A stretch of DNA of 47,334 nt from an uncultured Candidatus Bathyarchaeia archaeon (lineage in GTDB: Archaea; Thermoproteota; Bathyarchaeia; 40CM-2-53-6; CAYOZM01): NCBI GenBank assembly GCA_964533795.1, contig CAZHMI010000001.1:2535-49868 (forward strand), in the 5' to 3' direction. The notes beneath the pieces were generated by a model. It did not search any database, was not told the DNA's origin, and worked only from the letters and a program-made list of their open reading frames with translations. Of the stretch, positions 2,621 to 27,765 are shown one piece after another (within the stretch, counting starts at the first letter, position 1; every line of letters begins with the position of its first letter). Made by a program: the position numbers and the translations under genes.

Positions 2621-3255
2621 TCGGTTTTCGTGAAGAGAATTGCCGAGATCTTAGGTTCAAGATCCTTCCTTCTGCTCTTGATTAGAGCTTCAAAAGTATT
2701 GTCAACAGCAACCTTCCCATCATTTGATTTTATCAATACGCCCCCGATCGAGTTCGTAACTTCGGCTTTTCTCAGTGTTGTTTTAACTCCAGTAGCCTTC
2801 TCTACATTATCTGATAGCCGATCTAGAGGTAGATTCCTTTCATGGTCGTAATTGTTCAGATGAACTTGCAACTGCCCTCCGCCAGCGGCGATCGCGCCCT
2901 CTTCGATAAGTGACTCAAGCATCCTGTCGTACTCATTCGAGCGAGTGAATTCTTTGAGTTTTATCTTCACTTCATCGAAGACTTTATCAATGATCTTTTC
3001 TTTTTCAGATAGGATCATCCAATTCATTCTGATTCTTGAGTTGGCTATCGCGCTTTCAACTATGCTCCTCGCTTGATCTTCAGCGGTCTTAATCAAGGTC
3101 CCAGATTCTTCTTCAGCCTTCTTTCTAGCTTCCTGACGCTTTTCCTCCAAGGCTCCTTGAGCTGTCTTCCTTGATTTCTCGATAGATTCATCTGCTTCTT
3201 TCTTCGCATCATCTAGTATCTTCTTAATCAGGGCTTCCTGACGCAATTCTGACAA
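2617..3255 (-). CDS. atpE: A/V-type ATP synthase subunit E
   Basis: 212 aa with a long charged N-terminal helix (KKILDDAKKEADESIEKSRK...) and a globular C-terminus (GGVLIKSNDGKVAVDNTFEALI), as in subunit E. Confidence 0.75.
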   Translation of the reverse strand: MSELRQEALIKKILDDAKKEADESIEKSRKTAQGALEEKRQEARKKAEEESGTLIKTAEDQARSIVESAIANSRIRMNWMILSEKEKIIDKVFDEVKIKLKEFTRSNEYDRMLESLIEEGAIAAGGGQLQVHLNNYDHERNLPLDRLSDNVEKATGVKTTLRKAEVTNSIGGVLIKSNDGKVAVDNTFEALIKSRRKDLEPKISAILFTKTD

Positions 3256-3265
3256 AAGCGGTTCA

Positions 3266-3595
3266 TCACCCGTATGAGATTATCTCCTTGAAAACCTGTT
3301 CAGAGGCCTTAGCGATGTTTCTTTCAGCCGTCTCTCTAAGCTTCTTGACTTCATCTTCCGCTTGAGCGATTATCTTCTGGGCTTCGGTCTCTGCGTTTAC
3401 TTTTGCCTTCTTTATGATCGCGTCTGCTTTCTCCCTCGCTCGTTTCTTTATTTCCGTGTATGTCTCATCGTAGACTCTTATAGCGTCGATGCTTGCTTCT
3501 CGCTCTATCTTCTTCGCTTGCTTCAAGGCTTCTGCCAAGTTTTCCTCTGCTTGCTTTTCTGCGTCTCTTATCTCTGCAAGGACCTTGTCGACCAT
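3266..3595 (-). CDS. atpH: A-type ATP synthase subunit H (peripheral stalk)
   Basis: 109-aa highly charged coiled-coil protein (AEIRDAEKQAEENLAEALKQAKKIEREA) immediately upstream of atpE. Confidence 0.6.
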   Translation of the reverse strand: MVDKVLAEIRDAEKQAEENLAEALKQAKKIEREASIDAIRVYDETYTEIKKRAREKADAIIKKAKVNAETEAQKIIAQAEDEVKKLRETAERNIAKASEQVFKEIISYG

Positions 3596-5980: not shown

Positions 5981-6028
5981 AGTTACTAAAGGTAACATTT
6001 ATAAGGCAGAAAGTTACTAAAGGTAACA
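5981..6028 (+). promoter_or_regulatory. two identical 17-nt operator-like boxes AGTTACTAAAGGTAACA (each with dyad GTTAC-N5-GTAAC) flanking a TATA box TTTATAA
   Basis: Box 1 at 5981-5997, TTTATAA at 5998-6004, box 2 at 6012-6028. The downstream ORF starts at GTG 6032 or ATG 6041, consistent with a leaderless transcript. Confidence 0.65.
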
Positions 6029-20653: not shown

Positions 20654-20744
20654 GGGGCGGTGGTCCAGCTTGGTCAAAGATTCCGGTCTCGGGACCCGTG
20701 GGCGAGTGAGCCGGAGATCGCGGGTTCAAATCCCGCCCGCCCCA
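20654..20744 (+). tRNA. tRNA-Pro (anticodon CGG) with about 15-nt intron at the canonical 37/38 position; CCA not encoded
   Basis: Hand fold: acceptor GGGGCGG/CCGCCCC plus A73; T arm GCGGG-TTCAAAT-CCCGC; anticodon stem CCGGT/GCCGG; loop CTCGGGA interrupted by ACCCGTGGGCGAGTG; D arm weak (3 bp). Confidence 0.75.
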
Positions 20745-20784
20745 CTAGAACAAACCCTATATCCTAACGAATATTTTGTAAGGG

Positions 20785-21000
20785 TCATTTTCTTTTCCTA
20801 AAGATTTTGTTGCGATCATAGTCGCAGACATGTTCAAAGCCCGCTTCTATGAGTTGGCACACTTCTTGCTCTGAGTGAGCGACTTTTGCGGTGTAGTCGT
20901 CGTCTTTGAAGTTTACGAGTTGGGTGTAGATGAGGGTGTTTTGGATGCTTCTGTGGCCAAGTGTTTGCATGATATGGAGAATGACTTTGGCTTCATTCCG
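20785..21000 (-). pseudogene. tyrosine recombinase/integrase, C-terminal stub only
   Basis: ...ILHIMQTLGHRSIQNTLIYTQLV... is the box II LGH...Y catalytic-Tyr region. An in-frame TAG about 10 codons upstream of the Met ends the frame and no N-terminal part follows. Lies 41 nt from the tRNA 3' end. Confidence 0.7.
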
Positions 21001-22311: not shown

Positions 22312-22563
22312 TTGGCGAGTACCATGACGATTGCCAAAGTCGGAAGACGCGGAAGCTTAGTCATTCCTTCGAGAGAGAGAAGAAAGGCCAAGATCGAAGA
22401 GGGAGATCGGGTCGAGATTGTCGCAAGAGGATCTGGCCTGCTTGTTTTAAAGAGAGTGCCGGCGCTGAAGGAAATCCAGAAGAAGATGGCCGGTCGTCTC
22501 CCACAATGGAGAGATCTCGAGGGAAAGGCTGACGAACTGGCTGAAAAAGAAGTCAAGGGCTAG
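22312..22563 (+). CDS. AbrB/SpoVT-fold DNA-binding protein (VapB/MazE-type antitoxin-like), no partner toxin
   Basis: TIAKVGRRGSLVIPSRERRKAKIEEGDRVEIVARGSGLLVLK is a SpoVT/AbrB swapped-hairpin motif. Confidence 0.65.
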   Translation: MASTMTIAKVGRRGSLVIPSRERRKAKIEEGDRVEIVARGSGLLVLKRVPALKEIQKKMAGRLPQWRDLEGKADELAEKEVKG

Positions 22564-23307: not shown

Positions 23308-23699
23308 ATGTTCACTCATGCCAGTATTCGGACTAGCGATATGGATAGGTCGATTGACTTCTACACTAGGATAATGGGACTGAAACTTCTGAGTCGAGAA
23401 GAGATTCCGCAGAACAATGCTGAGATTGCTTTCCTCCAAGATCCGGAGGGGAGGGGGCTGAGCTTGAGCTGACGTTCTATAGGAATCAGAAGAAGTTTAT
23501 TCAGGCTGATTATGAGGATCGGTTGTTCGATCATCTCGCGTTTGAAGTCGAGGATATGGAAGAGATAATTTCCGTGATGCGGATGAAGAAGTTCACGATT
23601 ACAGACGAGCCTTTTAGACTTAACCAGACTGGATCATTGATAGCGTTCGTTGAGGATCCGGACGGGACCTTGGTCGAATTGATCGAGAGAAAGCAGTAG
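23308..23699 (+). pseudogene. glyoxalase I/VOC-family protein, frameshifted in a G-rich run
   Basis: Frame 1: MFTHASIRTSDMDRSIDFYTRIMGLKLLSREEIPQNNAEIAFLQDPEGRGLSLS*. A shifted frame continues ELTFYRNQ...FDHLAFEVEDMEE...IAFVEDPDGTLVELIERKQ*. The span is 392 nt, not a multiple of 3. Confidence 0.7.
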
Positions 23700-24768: not shown

Positions 24769-24857
24769 CCGTACAGCGGATAACTTGAATGAGACTGATC
24801 GCTGAAAGTGCTGGATACGCGAAGAACCTCATTGAGTCTATGCGATTTCCAAAAGGC

Positions 24858-24896
24858 TTTTAAGGCAACTGTGGCAGAATGTGGCTAATTGTGGCA
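24858..24896 (+). promoter_or_regulatory. TATA-like TTTTAA followed by three 10-bp-phased TGTGGCW boxes
   Basis: TTTTAA at 24858-24863. TGTGGCA at 24870-24876, TGTGGCT at 24880-24886, TGTGGCA at 24890-24896. ATG of the AbrB-like gene at 24901. Confidence 0.6.
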
Positions 24897-24900
24897 TCAA

Positions 24901-25089
24901 ATGTCTATCATATACAGTATACCGGTCCGCATCGTTCCCAATAATGGCACATTGCGATGCACTATCCCAAAGGAAATCGTGCTGAACCTAGGATTGCAAA
25001 AGGGAGACGAGCTCATCTGGATTCTTCATGATGATGGAAAGCTTGAGGTTAGAGTTCCAAGAGAAGCCAAGGCGAAGAAATTAGAATAA
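24901..25089 (+). CDS. AbrB/SpoVT-fold small DNA-binding protein upstream of the methyltransferase (candidate R-M controller)
   Basis: MSIIYSIPVRIVPNNGTLRCTIPKEIVLNLGLQKGDELIWILHDDGKLEVRV is a SpoVT/AbrB motif. The ORF track extends to TTG 24889. There are 26 nt to the MTase start. Confidence 0.65.
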   Translation: MSIIYSIPVRIVPNNGTLRCTIPKEIVLNLGLQKGDELIWILHDDGKLEVRVPREAKAKKLE

Positions 25090-25115
25090 CGCGTATGAAA
25101 GGATAGCGAAACACT

Positions 25116-26375
25116 ATGCTCACCAAGAACAGGGACTATATGGCAGAACCAATCCTGGATTGGATACTTAACGGAATCCCTGAACCAGTAAACGTGAAAC
25201 TTTTCGACGATGTTGCGTTCATCTACGAGGCACAGCTAGCTAAGATGGAACTGTTCTCTTGGTGGCAAGATCTCGATGAATTTCAGAAGAGAGCTGCCTA
25301 CTATGAAGAAGTAAATGGCCAGAAAACCTATCACTACTATATTTCAGACATTAAGGGTAAGGATCAAATCGGTCGGTCAAACCAGTACTTGACTCATTGG
25401 TACTACCCATACAAGGCGAAGTTTCATCCCCAGATGATAAAGGCCCTAATAAACTGGATGGCTCTCAAAAAAGGCCAAAAATTGCTAGACCCGTTCGTCG
25501 GTTCAGGTACAGCGCTGATTGAGGCGAAACTCATAGGCGTTGACAGTATTGGAATCGACATCGACCCATTCTGTGTGTTCATGAGCAAAGTCAAAACAGA
25601 CCTTCTGGACTTGAGACCTGAACAACTTGACGCCTTAGATTTTCAAACCGCATTCAACCACTTCAAAACGTTCAAGGGAAAATCATCTCAAGTCGGACTA
25701 ACAAAGTTCATAGAGGCTAACGCCACATCAAAGTCTCCGTTCTTCGGAATGGATGAGAGAATTCATGACTTCTTCCTCCTAAGCTATCTCTATGCGCTCT
25801 CCGATTACACTTATGTTAAGCGAGACATGTGGGAAGGATTTCACCAGAACACCAGCCAAATCATGAAATCAATCCGCAGATTCGATGAACTAAAGCAACA
25901 GCTTGACCTAAAGATGGGGAAAGTAGAGGTCGAGCATGGAGATGCAAGATTCCTTGAACAAAAAGGGATTCAAAGAGAAAGCATCGATGGCATAGTAACA
26001 AGCCCTCCATATAGCATCGCGGTAGACTACATTGCGATGGACCTTCACACCTTCAAATACCTAGGAATAGAACCCCAAGGTCTCCAAGACAAACTGGTCG
26101 GTCTCAAAGGAAAGCATGAGGAGAGGGTTCGTATTTATTTTGAGGACATGGAACTAGCTTTTCAAAGTATGTTCAACGTCCTAAAGCCCAAAGCGCGGTG
26201 CGCCGTCGTTATTGGTGACGTAACTTTCGAAGGAAAGAAACTACCGATCACTCAACGATTCATCGACATTGCCGAGAAGATTGGCTTCAAACTGGTGAAC
26301 GTCATACGCCGGCCTATTCTCGGAGGTTTTGCACGGCTGAGATACGAGTACATGATACTTTTGCAGAAGCCCTAG
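25116..26375 (+). CDS. DNA methyltransferase (N6-adenine or N4-cytosine), motif I before motif IV
   Basis: Motif I LLDPFVGSGTALIEA...GIDID. Motif IV IVTSPPYS about 170 aa downstream. Confidence 0.8.
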   Translation: MLTKNRDYMAEPILDWILNGIPEPVNVKLFDDVAFIYEAQLAKMELFSWWQDLDEFQKRAAYYEEVNGQKTYHYYISDIKGKDQIGRSNQYLTHWYYPYKAKFHPQMIKALINWMALKKGQKLLDPFVGSGTALIEAKLIGVDSIGIDIDPFCVFMSKVKTDLLDLRPEQLDALDFQTAFNHFKTFKGKSSQVGLTKFIEANATSKSPFFGMDERIHDFFLLSYLYALSDYTYVKRDMWEGFHQNTSQIMKSIRRFDELKQQLDLKMGKVEVEHGDARFLEQKGIQRESIDGIVTSPPYSIAVDYIAMDLHTFKYLGIEPQGLQDKLVGLKGKHEERVRIYFEDMELAFQSMFNVLKPKARCAVVIGDVTFEGKKLPITQRFIDIAEKIGFKLVNVIRRPILGGFARLRYEYMILLQKP

Positions 26376-27142
26376 TCAAGCCTCCGCTGACCTTTCTTCT
26401 CCTTTGTCCAAGTATCTCGCGCTTTTCCCGCCACCTTGAGAATCTCTTCAAAAGCCCCATTTCCTCCGATCATGTCCCACAGAGCCTTACCGATTAGAAC
26501 CTCTCTTTCTAAGTCCATTATCCGTTTGGTGAATCCCCATCGGTATTCTTTTCCTTCGCCATACGGATTGTATGGCAATCCGAAGAAAGCTTGACCCTTC
26601 TTATTCTCCTCGAACATCATAGCTAGGAATGTAAGCATCTTCCGTTTAGATTCATCACAGACATCCAAGTTAGGCAAGGGACTCTTGATTTCAAGGAACA
26701 GAGGCCCCTGTTGATGATCTCCGATGTATAGGTCAGCGATAGTCCTTGTCAGTTGCCTACTGTTGCTCCTAACCTTCAGGATTTCATCGAGCTCACGTTC
26801 ACGGTCAGGCCTTCTTCGGTTGCCTCTCAAATCATCAACGATCTTATTGATGGCATTCATCTTGGCCGATTCGATTTCTCTCTCAATCTGATGCTCGCGT
26901 CGCACATCTCTATAACGTTCTTTGGCGACGATTTCAGCCAAAGGCGGATAGAACATTACTCCAATCCTTGTGACGATTGAACGCTCCTGTTTGGCATAAG
27001 GTAGAACCTCTTCAGGAAAGAAGATAGCGTGAAATGGATAGAGTTTCCTAAGTTCTTCAATCGAGTACTTAGCAAGAGAAGCGATTTCATCAAGGACTCT
27101 GAAGGTAAGTTTAGTGATTTGCTCCTCAGTCTCACGCTTCAC
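26372..27142 (-). CDS. putative type II restriction endonuclease, PD-(D/E)xK fold (TdeIII-like by memory)
   Basis: IADLYIGDHQQGPLFLEIKSPLPNLD gives a D...E-x-K arrangement. Convergent with and overlapping the MTase 3' end. Confidence 0.55.
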   Translation of the reverse strand: MKRETEEQITKLTFRVLDEIASLAKYSIEELRKLYPFHAIFFPEEVLPYAKQERSIVTRIGVMFYPPLAEIVAKERYRDVRREHQIEREIESAKMNAINKIVDDLRGNRRRPDRERELDEILKVRSNSRQLTRTIADLYIGDHQQGPLFLEIKSPLPNLDVCDESKRKMLTFLAMMFEENKKGQAFFGLPYNPYGEGKEYRWGFTKRIMDLEREVLIGKALWDMIGGNGAFEEILKVAGKARDTWTKEKKGQRRLD

Positions 27143-27178
27143 GATGTCTCACTCTCTAGGCCGGTAGACCCAGATTCA

Positions 27179-27503
27179 CTAACTTCTTGCTGACCTTAGT
27201 TTTCCTCCGCAGATAGGGCAGATCTCACCCACAGCTTTCTTGTCTTCGTCGCGTAGGTACGCTAGCTTCTTGAAGCTTCTGGAGTAGGCTACGGACAAAG
27301 TCGCTCGTAGAGTCGCGTAAGGTAACGTTTCGAAAGGCGAAGATTGAAGTTCTCGCTCAAATCGTTCAGATTGCTCTCAACCATCCAATTCACGTCGCAC
27401 AGGGCGATACGCCCTCACTCTGCGCATGAAACGCTTTGCCTACTCTTATATTGAATTCAGCCGGCTTTAAAGTTTGAACGCTGTAGACGCATAGCTTTTG
27501 CAT
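27179..27503 (-). pseudogene. degraded small ORF with C-terminal CPICG zinc-ribbon-like end (needs two frameshifts)
   Basis: Three frame pieces: MQKLCVYSVQTLKPAEFNIRVGKAFHAQSEGVSPCAT*, LCDVNWMVESNLNDLSENFNLRLSKRYLTRLYERLCP*, and ...SVAYSRSFKKLAYLRDEDKKAVGEICPICGGKLRSARS*. Ends 36 nt upstream of the REase start. Confidence 0.25.
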
Positions 27504-27765
27504 AATGCCAGCGATTCGATCCCAGGCCTAGCGGATAGGAGGACCTTCTCACGGCAAAGAATCGTCTAGGTACATCATATGGAGAAAGAGGAAAGCTTCA
27601 ACGCCCGAAACTCGAAGAACTGGAAAAGATTTTCAACGAAGTTCTTGAAACAACACTGCTTGATGATCTCAAGCATCACCTTAGACGCATTTCTTAGCAA
27701 CATTATCTCATTGAAAACTCCAGCCTCCGGGATACCCGGGGGCCCCCTTCCTAGGGGTTCGGCGC

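Follow-up and report, generated by a model that had tools for sequence, protein, structure and literature searches.

An AbrB-fold protein as the probable autoregulatory controller of an archaeal mobile restriction-modification cassette of type II

We analyzed a stretch of 47,334 nucleotides (nt) from an uncultured Candidatus Bathyarchaeia archaeon (contig CAZHMI010000001.1 of assembly GCA_964533795.1, positions 2,535 to 49,868 of the forward strand), referred to below as the window. It harbors a mobile cassette with adjacent, separate genes for a DNA methyltransferase and a restriction endonuclease, which is the gene content of a type II restriction-modification (R-M) system; the enzymatic activities are predicted. 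Immediately upstream of the methyltransferase gene lies a small gene, abrB, encoding a protein of 62 amino acids (aa) with an AbrB/SpoVT fold, and abrB in turn is preceded by a promoter with three repeat boxes. The abrB and methyltransferase genes are jointly designated abrB-M, and related loci carry L numbers. The features of the cassette are as follows:

24847..24857, plus strand: candidate transcription factor B recognition element, purine-rich CCAAAAGGC, directly 5' of the TATA box, called from its position alone
24858..24863, plus strand: TATA-box-like TTTTAA of the abrB-M promoter, read from the sequence
24870..24876, plus strand: proposed operator box 1, TGTGGCA; position kept in L081 (TATGTCA) and L093 (GGTGGCA)
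24880..24886, plus strand: proposed operator box 2, TGTGGCT; TGTGCCT at the same position in L081 and L093
24890..24896, plus strand: proposed operator box 3, TGTGGCA; TGTGGCA in L081, AGTGGCA in L093
24901..25089, plus strand: abrB, 62-aa AbrB/SpoVT-fold protein, proposed R-M controller; PF04014, 14 invariant residues, 24 homologues
25116..26375, plus strand: DNA methyltransferase gene, 419 aa, PF01555 (N6_N4_Mtase, E = 7.7e-15), SPPY motif
26372..27142, minus strand: TdeIII-family type II restriction endonuclease gene, 256 aa, PF09520 (E = 1.4e-53)
24847-27153: mobile R-M cassette with its left border at 24847, delimited by DNA homology with L081 and L092, which have different surroundings

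The stop codon of abrB (25089) and the start codon of the methyltransferase gene (ATG, 25116) are separated by a 26-nt gap without a TATA-like element. Because of this gap, and because the two genes are tightly spaced or overlapping in most relatives, they are probably co-transcribed. The endonuclease gene, which starts with GTG, converges on the methyltransferase gene, and the 3' ends of the two genes overlap by 4 bp. Its family, PF09520, was labelled "HinfI" in a precomputed Pfam table and RE_TdeIII by hmmscan, which is a difference in naming and not in biology. The DNA homology that defines the cassette extends from a point 11 bp 5' of the TATA box to 27153, which lies 11 bp 5' of the endonuclease GTG; in L090 and L091, similarity to the window is likewise lost 5' of about position 24845. 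The borders enclose the promoter, abrB, and the methyltransferase and endonuclease genes, and nothing else. Since the homology begins 11 bp before the TATA box, the promoter and its boxes move with the genes.

The window is archaeal by content, with an RPA-like replication factor-A protein, an ATPase_2 protein, and archaeal relatives. The closest relatives of its methyltransferase come from Bathyarchaeia, Methanocellales, and Nitrosotalea, and the source of the sequence is a hot-spring metagenome. As the host is an archaeon, TTTTAA should be read as an archaeal TATA box and not as a –10/–35 element.

PF04014 (MazE_antitoxin; the SpoVT/AbrB domain) was the sole Pfam match of the 62-aa protein (E = 5e-8; 33.2 bits versus a cutoff of 24.7). 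The NCBIfam AbrB domain TIGR01439 scored 21.6, under its cutoff of 28.3, and the Pfam scan returned neither a helix-turn-helix family nor PF02381 (MraZ). We took the ATG at 24901 as the true start, instead of the upstream TTG at 24889 listed by the open reading frame (ORF) finder, because all homologues open with M-x-I-x-YSIPV. Fourteen residues are invariant across the 24 homologues. Family members comprise 54-65 aa, and the tail beyond the DNA-binding domain measures just 4-12 residues. An AlphaFold2 monomer model based on 19 family members has a beta-beta-alpha-beta-beta topology (strands 3-10, 12-19, 37-43, and 48-51; helix 24-30) with a predicted local distance difference test score of 72.5. 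A profile search of the PDB gave weak, non-significant matches to the AbrB-like protein C56 (7xi6, E = 0.03), SpoVT (E = 0.28), and 3o27 (E = 0.42). We take 3o27 to be C68 of the Sulfolobus virus-plasmid hybrid pSSVx, and C56 is presumably a related archaeal mobile-element protein. Its sequence suggests that the 62-aa protein consists of a single DNA-binding domain of the AbrB/SpoVT swapped-hairpin type that stands alone. A first-pass annotation of the window had placed a 62-aa SpoVT/AbrB protein 26 nt upstream of the methyltransferase gene, and both the PF04014 match and the coordinates confirm it.

The same annotation had described TTTTAA followed by TGTGGCA, TGTGGCT, and TGTGGCA boxes at 10-bp phase and 4 nt before the ATG, and each of these elements is exact in the sequence. 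Successive boxes recur at intervals of exactly 10 bp, and 4 nt lie between the end of box 3 and the start codon (24901). The array can also be read as GTGG-N6-GTGG-N6-GTGG (24871-24894) or as TGGCA-N5-TGGCT-N5-TGGCA. On both strands of the 47-kb window, TGTGGCW occurs 10 times, which is close to the expectation from shuffled sequence. Three of these 10 copies lie in phase inside 27 bp at the abrB promoter, which led us to exclude a chance origin of the boxes. A search for TGTGGCW pairs with up to three mismatches revealed no comparable site elsewhere in the window. Tandem Repeats Finder reported a period-10 array at 24864-24896, and the self-identity at offset 10 over the 36 nt 5' of the window ATG was 0.54 (mononucleotide-shuffle p = 0.0008).

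In archaea, transcription usually starts about 26 nt downstream of the TATA box. The start of the abrB-M transcript is therefore expected at about 24885-24890, so that the boxes would span roughly –17 to +10. We also considered that the last box might solely be a Shine-Dalgarno sequence, as GTGAC or GGTGA stands 3 nt before the ATG in some clades. This explanation was set aside: with 37-43 nt between TATA and ATG, transcription is expected to begin at or after the last box.

The three-box layout recurs in every clade of related loci: a TATA hexamer, 5-6 nt, box 1, N3, box 2, N3, box 3, 2-5 nt, and the ATG. The box sequences themselves are clade-specific; the 10-bp phasing of three boxes between TATA and ATG is common to all clades, as is a TGNC-type core just 5' of the ATG. 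The boxes 1, 2, and 3 read as follows:

Window, L082, and L090: TGTGGCA / TGTGGCT / TGTGGCA
L081: TATGTCA / TGTGCCT / TGTGGCA
L093 (AbrB 58% identical, different nuclease family): GGTGGCA / TGTGCCT / AGTGGCA
Divergent TdeIII clade (L088, L089, L105, L107, L111, and L114; one a Heimdallarchaeote), 4-nt cores: TGTC / AGTC / KGAC
Clade with the 308-aa methyltransferase: GTAATTT / ATACCTT / TGACCTT

The invariant pattern in the divergent TdeIII clade is GTGTC-N7-GTCT-N6-GAC. Over the 36 nt 5' of the ATG, self-identity at offset 10 averaged 0.46 for 19 loci, compared with 0.20-0.33 at other offsets. The 102 upstream regions from the same contigs that served as controls gave 0.29 at offset 10 within a flat range of 0.27-0.31. 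The Mann-Whitney p value for loci versus controls was about 1e-9, a figure that overstates independence as the loci are related. Clade representatives from the window, L093, L105, and L096 individually exceeded all controls.

To judge what the small gene belongs to, its genomic distribution is informative. The AbrB subfamily is small and tight, with about five clusters (50% identity) at E < 1e-13 among 1.84 billion representatives. It was found at 33 archaeal loci, the window included, which come from Heimdallarchaeota, Aenigmatarchaeota, Jordarchaeaceae, and unassigned metagenomic contigs and have unrelated flanking contexts. A PF01555 methyltransferase gene lies directly downstream on the same strand in all 32 loci for which downstream DNA is available. 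The gap between the two genes is –14 to +6 nt in most loci and ranges overall from a 14-nt overlap to 91 nt, the longer gaps (about 26-32 and up to 84-91 nt) belonging to the window's own clade and one other clade. Among the linked methyltransferases, at least three subfamilies can be told apart (419-425 aa, 399-402 aa, and 268-314 aa), with mutual identities of 22-45%. Their partner nucleases likewise represent no fewer than three families unrelated to one another, namely TdeIII-type, EcoO109I-type (L093), and proteins of about 190 aa, among which the L112 protein alone matched a known family, that of the Hjc-like endonucleases. Convergent nuclease genes occur in the window, L081, L090, L093, L083, and L096, and divergent ones in L088, L089, L098-L104, L105, L107, L111, and L114. 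Between the window and L090, the AbrB proteins are 98% and the methyltransferases 93% identical, but the endonucleases merely 33%. In L090 (5019-6117) and L091, a TdeIII paralogue has taken the place of the endonuclease, and upstream of it 77 aa from the N-terminus of the window-type endonuclease persist as a remnant. Such a distribution would be expected of a regulatory module that is portable, optional, always attached to a methyltransferase, and indifferent to the identity of the nuclease.

The linkage also bears on the idea that the AbrB protein is a hitch-hiking or generic regulator of mobile elements, as in Sulfolobus plasmids and viruses, with no R-M role and with boxes that serve another factor or have no function. 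This idea agrees with the weak best PDB matches to C56 and 3o27, with the position of the cassette in an island beside a tRNA gene and an integrase-like fragment together with another AbrB-type gene, and with the existence of a sister group, made up of L109 and L110 (a viral contig), that lacks the YSIPV N-terminus and is not located next to a methyltransferase gene. L110 was also the only match in viral contigs, and it has no methyltransferase gene. Given the adjacency to a methyltransferase gene in 32 of 32 core-subfamily loci from several archaeal groups and unrelated contexts, and cassette borders that hold only the promoter and the three genes, we regard this explanation as very improbable.

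We rate equally low a role as an antitoxin that neutralizes the endonuclease by direct binding, with or without autoregulation, in the manner of MazE, VapB, and PrlF. That the protein might double as an antitoxin-like element for the endonuclease had been proposed in the first-pass annotation. The resemblance is real in several respects: the best Pfam family bears the name MazE_antitoxin, there are sub-threshold NCBIfam matches to "putative addiction module antidote", and in both cases a small PF04014 protein is encoded by the first gene of a two-gene mobile module of the addiction type. R-M systems do behave as addiction modules (PMC2701414), and AbrB-type antitoxins autorepress via operator repeats in their own promoter (PMC4333400). 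However, MazE, VapB, and PrlF possess a C-terminal toxin-binding tail and a neighboring proteic toxin, whereas the present family consists essentially of the DNA-binding domain, without such an extension, and the gene downstream encodes a protective methyltransferase. No canonical toxin gene (MazF, PIN, or Doc) adjoins abrB among the window genes. The constant neighbor is the methyltransferase and not the nuclease, and AbrB proteins as similar as those of the window and L090 accompany endonucleases sharing 33% identity, other partners being from unrelated families. The proposal of the annotation is thus not supported.

Our best reading of the locus, and the one directly inferable from it, is autorepression of the abrB-M operon. 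On balance, we consider it probable that the 62-aa protein is the autoregulatory controller of this mobile type II R-M cassette. As the first gene of an abrB-methyltransferase operon under a TATA promoter, abrB would supply dimers that bind cooperatively, one per box, to three direct repeats one helical turn apart. The boxes fill the space between TATA box and start codon and cover the expected transcription start, and their occupancy would block the recruitment of RNA polymerase. Archaeal repressors bound at such positions are known to act in this way. On entry of the cassette into a naive cell, the operon would fire, yielding a burst of methyltransferase followed by self-shutdown to a low steady level. 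The outcome would be negative feedback on the dosage of the methyltransferase. Cooperative autoregulation, as put forward in the first-pass annotation, thus gains considerable support of a comparative kind from the dedicated gene, the promoter that travels with it, the conserved phasing of three boxes, and a layout resembling that of MraZ and AbrB operators.

We propose this mechanism because the layout matches published operators of the AbrB superfamily. MraZ, a member of this superfamily, binds cooperatively to three to four GTG(G/T) boxes with 6-nt spacers, one DNA-binding cradle per major groove, and represses its own operon, in which the transcription start lies inside a box (PMC12957436). 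The MraZ site has also been written as (AAAGTGKN3)3 (PMC5282649). The GTGG-N6 triple of the window follows the same 10-bp operator grammar, and in both cases the operon's first gene encodes the regulator; the overlap with the transcription start is inferred for the window. MraZ forms octameric and nonameric rings (PMC12957436), and it is a bacterial protein of the cell-division (dcw) cluster, whereas the 62-aa protein has a single domain, must dimerize, gives no PF02381 match, and belongs to a defense cassette. B. subtilis AbrB prefers paired TGGNA motifs, either tandem or inverted, with 4-5 bp between them (PMC3025583), and TGGCA-N5-TGGCT-N5-TGGCA resembles such sites. The N-terminal DNA-binding fold is shared with Bacillus AbrB, Abh, and SpoVT. 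These proteins, however, carry C-terminal multimerization or GAF domains and act globally with relaxed specificity, whereas the 62-aa protein lacks a C-terminal domain and apparently serves one promoter. With regard to MraZ, two further points are of interest. The protein has about 150 aa and contains two AbrB-like half-domains in tandem, and mraZ is followed by rsmH (mraW), encoding an N4-cytosine methyltransferase that depends on S-adenosylmethionine and acts on rRNA.

Several observations weigh against this assignment. In the Foldseek search with the monomer model, MazE and SpoVT ranked first with non-significant E values of 0.3-0.7. The absence of a significant match is unsurprising for a monomer model, since this fold occurs solely in the form of an intertwined dimer. 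The offset-10 identities of some loci do not stand clear of the controls, L083 ranking at the top 3%, L111 at the top 7%, and L088 at the top 18%. Moreover, the box sequences vary by clade, and the clade of L088 and L111 repeats 4-nt cores only. Between the window and L081, there are 3 changes in 21 box positions versus about 4 in 10 spacer positions, that is, the boxes are modestly better kept. Given this small difference between boxes and spacers in the window's clade, the support for the boxes is architectural and does not amount to a clean footprint. A run search for transcripts retrieved the window sequence from DNA metagenome runs only (hot spring and sediment). Furthermore, L001 and L002 contain homologous methyltransferase (58-62%) and endonuclease (49-52%) genes but no AbrB gene, and an AbrB gene was found in none of the 80 genome loci with the closest methyltransferase relatives. 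The TdeIII nuclease is present in 3 of those 80 loci only (L001, L002, and L004). As the nearest relatives of both enzymes, in L001 and L002, do without it, the AbrB gene must be dispensable for the enzymes and represents an optional accessory module. The conservation of the small ORF in R-M loci, on which the first-pass annotation had made its proposal depend, therefore holds when viewed from the AbrB side, where all 32 copies precede a methyltransferase gene, and fails in part when viewed from the side of the enzymes.

The same loci speak to the possibility that the AbrB protein is not a transcription factor but a DNA-binding accessory subunit of the methyltransferase, for instance in targeting or loading, the repeats being unrelated promoter features. 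Strict linkage to the methyltransferase gene, with frequent overlap or a spacing of 2-6 nt suggestive of translational coupling and stoichiometric production, would suit such a subunit. Yet homologous methyltransferases function at loci without an AbrB gene, and pairing with at least three subfamilies that are 22-45% identical argues against a specific protein interface. The clade-specific triple boxes with their conserved position would also be left unexplained. Hence, we find an accessory subunit improbable and retain autorepression as the preferred reading.

The endonuclease gene is not linked to the AbrB gene as the methyltransferase gene is, and TGTGGCW boxes, which the first-pass annotation had suggested looking for upstream of it, did not turn up: in the window, no TGTGGCW pair with up to three mismatches occurs near 27143-27600, which again counts against the assignment. 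In loci with the 308-aa methyltransferase, a clade-specific two-box search of the endonuclease promoters gave chance-level matches only; one recurrent match lies within the nuclease coding sequence and reflects coding conservation. The cassette carries no conserved endonuclease promoter, as the homology stops 11 bp 5' of the endonuclease start. What the locus suggests is therefore control of the methyltransferase operon by the AbrB protein; government of the whole R-M system is not supported for the endonuclease gene, which shows neither linkage nor boxes.

Any effect on the endonuclease would be indirect and would depend on the gene layout. In the convergent layout, abrB-M transcripts may run antisense into the window endonuclease gene until the operon is repressed, since the two genes overlap by 4 bp and no T5 run occurs on the plus strand at 24850-27700; repression would then relieve antisense or convergent transcription. 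In the divergent layout, six loci (L088, L089, L105, L107, L111, and L114) and the clade with the 308-aa methyltransferase have one near-palindromic TATA element (TTTAAATA / TATTTAAA) between the endonuclease and abrB-M genes, with the boxes on the abrB side of this shared element only. Box occupancy could bias the pre-initiation complex toward the endonuclease gene by freeing the shared TATA element for that direction. Both ideas resemble the bacterial R-M circuits based on promoter competition that have been reviewed (PMC12707154). Taken together, they would define a class of archaeal AbrB-fold R-M controllers with an MraZ-like three-box operator, in which the shutoff of abrB-M also times the endonuclease, by handing over the TATA element in divergent loci and by antisense relief in convergent ones. 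We offer this switch in the orientation of the pre-initiation complex tentatively, as a possibility that goes well beyond autorepression.

Alternatively, the AbrB protein might be a true analogue of the controller (C) proteins, activating or switching the endonuclease gene through an unrecognized site or the shared TATA element, so that autorepression would be half the circuit. The shared near-palindromic TATA with boxes on the abrB side only, the convergent 4-bp overlap without an oligo-T terminator on the plus strand, by which repression of abrB-M could de-repress the endonuclease, and the bacterial precedent of promoter competition (PMC12707154) are all compatible with this view. We nevertheless consider it unlikely, as box-like sites 5' of the endonuclease gene in the window and its convergent relatives are at chance level, the cassette brings no conserved endonuclease promoter with it, and the mechanism is purely inferred.

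Comparison with known R-M regulators places autorepression by the 62-aa protein in context. C proteins such as C.PvuII, C.AhdI, C.Esp1396I, and C.EcoO109I/C.Csp231I are likewise small (<100 aa), consist of a DNA-binding domain only, reside inside type II cassettes, and have their operator in their own promoter. They are also modular, occurring with many different R-M enzyme pairs and moving with them. Published C proteins are described as having one helix-turn-helix ancestry (PMC2632904; PMC12707154), whereas the 62-aa protein has an AbrB-type, probably swapped-hairpin domain and stands outside the C-protein family. C-boxes are inverted repeats, in contrast to the three direct repeats at 10-bp phase in the window. 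C genes are usually co-transcribed with the endonuclease gene, which they activate, but abrB precedes the methyltransferase gene in every locus. The host of the window is an archaeon, and the promoter is of the TATA type. A parallel in gene order is EcoO109I, for which Kita et al. reportedly described in 2002 a C gene upstream of the methyltransferase gene and a convergent endonuclease gene. This topology is the same as that of the window, and the L093 nuclease matches the EcoO109I family.

In the self-repressing methyltransferases of the SsoII type, negative feedback on the methyltransferase or its operon is likewise exerted from a site over the promoter and start. In divergent bacterial R-M systems, such feedback shifts transcription toward the endonuclease (PMC12707154). 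HsdC, encoded by the first gene of a methyltransferase-containing operon, binds direct repeats, (GTGTTAN5)2, over the transcription start (PMC5282649). SsoII-type and HsdC regulators are bacterial helix-turn-helix domains or C-family proteins, whereas a separate archaeal AbrB-fold protein is encoded here. By analogy, the 62-aa protein would act like a C protein or a self-repressing SsoII-type methyltransferase in its role, and its operator grammar is closest to that of MraZ.

A number of observations concern the surroundings of the cassettes. Upstream of the window cassette, at 20654-20970, a tRNA gene (ARAGORN, anticodon unassigned, tRNA-???) is followed by a minus-strand ORF of 61 aa (HRSIQNTLIYT...) that resembles the C-terminus of a tyrosine recombinase and has no Pfam match. 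The tRNA gene and the recombinase-like fragment may be an integration scar; the island that it would delimit on the left measures 6.5 kb and has the R-M cassette at its other end. Within this region, a second AbrB/MazE-type gene (22312-22563; 83 aa, PF04014, E = 2e-8) encodes a protein of VapB-like length; it has no recognizable toxin gene downstream and no TGTGGC boxes and is unrelated to the R-M-linked subfamily. A glyoxalase-family gene at 23308-23699 appears split into two ORFs (23308-23472 and 23523-23699) and is probably a pseudogene or frameshifted. Directly 5' of the endonuclease gene, a short minus-strand frame at 27180-27300, ending ...EICPICGGKLRSARS* and containing one CPxCG but no ATG, may be a gene remnant.

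In convergent cassettes whose nuclease has about 190 aa, the gene directly 5' of the nuclease gene codes for a conserved protein of 76 aa that contains two CxxC pairs (zinc ribbon) (L083, 6859-7089; L096, about 3180-3410, minus strand). This protein has a sub-threshold match to the Lar restriction-alleviation family and could be a second regulator or a nuclease partner. DndB-like (PF14072) genes adjoin several cassettes (L081, 4132-5730; L101, 2116-4131; L102-L104), and in L081 the endonuclease gene apparently closes an operon that also contains the DndB-like gene. A tblastn search of the window with the proteins neighboring the L081 cassette did not reveal a degraded DndB-like gene 5' of the window endonuclease.

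TdeIII reportedly cuts GGNCC. This sequence occurs 76 times in the whole window, versus 103 ± 10 in dinucleotide-preserving shuffles, a mild depletion. Elsewhere in the window, the inverted repeat GTTAC-TAAAG-GTAAC is present in two exact copies (5982-5996 and 6013-6027), against 0.05 expected by chance. Between them lies a TTTATA box, 5' of a gene whose 253-aa product contains an HVO_A0261_N-like domain; an Hsp20 gene comes next. The pair of repeats looks like the operator pair of a heat-shock-type regulator.

In the literature that we searched, a scope that does not extend to REBASE, no report of an AbrB-type R-M controller was found. There, R-M regulation is attributed to C proteins with a helix-turn-helix, to fusions of methyltransferase and repressor, to methylation of promoters, and to antisense RNA, nearly always in bacteria, and self-repressing R-M regulators are described only as helix-turn-helix proteins. 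AbrB-fold control of R-M systems in archaea is a plausible, previously undescribed solution. As a practical consequence, the N-terminal signature M-x-I-x-YSIPV(R/K) ... CTIPKEI ... W provides an annotation marker that flags uncharacterized archaeal R-M systems and, with them, nucleases of about 190 aa that current libraries do not recognize. With a 62-aa protein and a 27-bp operator, the system is also a compact test case for the specificity and cooperativity of AbrB proteins on direct repeats and for the blocking of the archaeal pre-initiation complex. The control problem that it would solve is that the methyltransferase must come first and then be held low. A dedicated AbrB-fold regulator across several archaeal phyla would show that this problem has been solved independently, with a different fold and a TATA promoter. 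If the shutoff of abrB-M indeed times the endonuclease as well, the family would represent the first class of C proteins without a helix-turn-helix and the first described establishment circuit of an archaeal R-M system.

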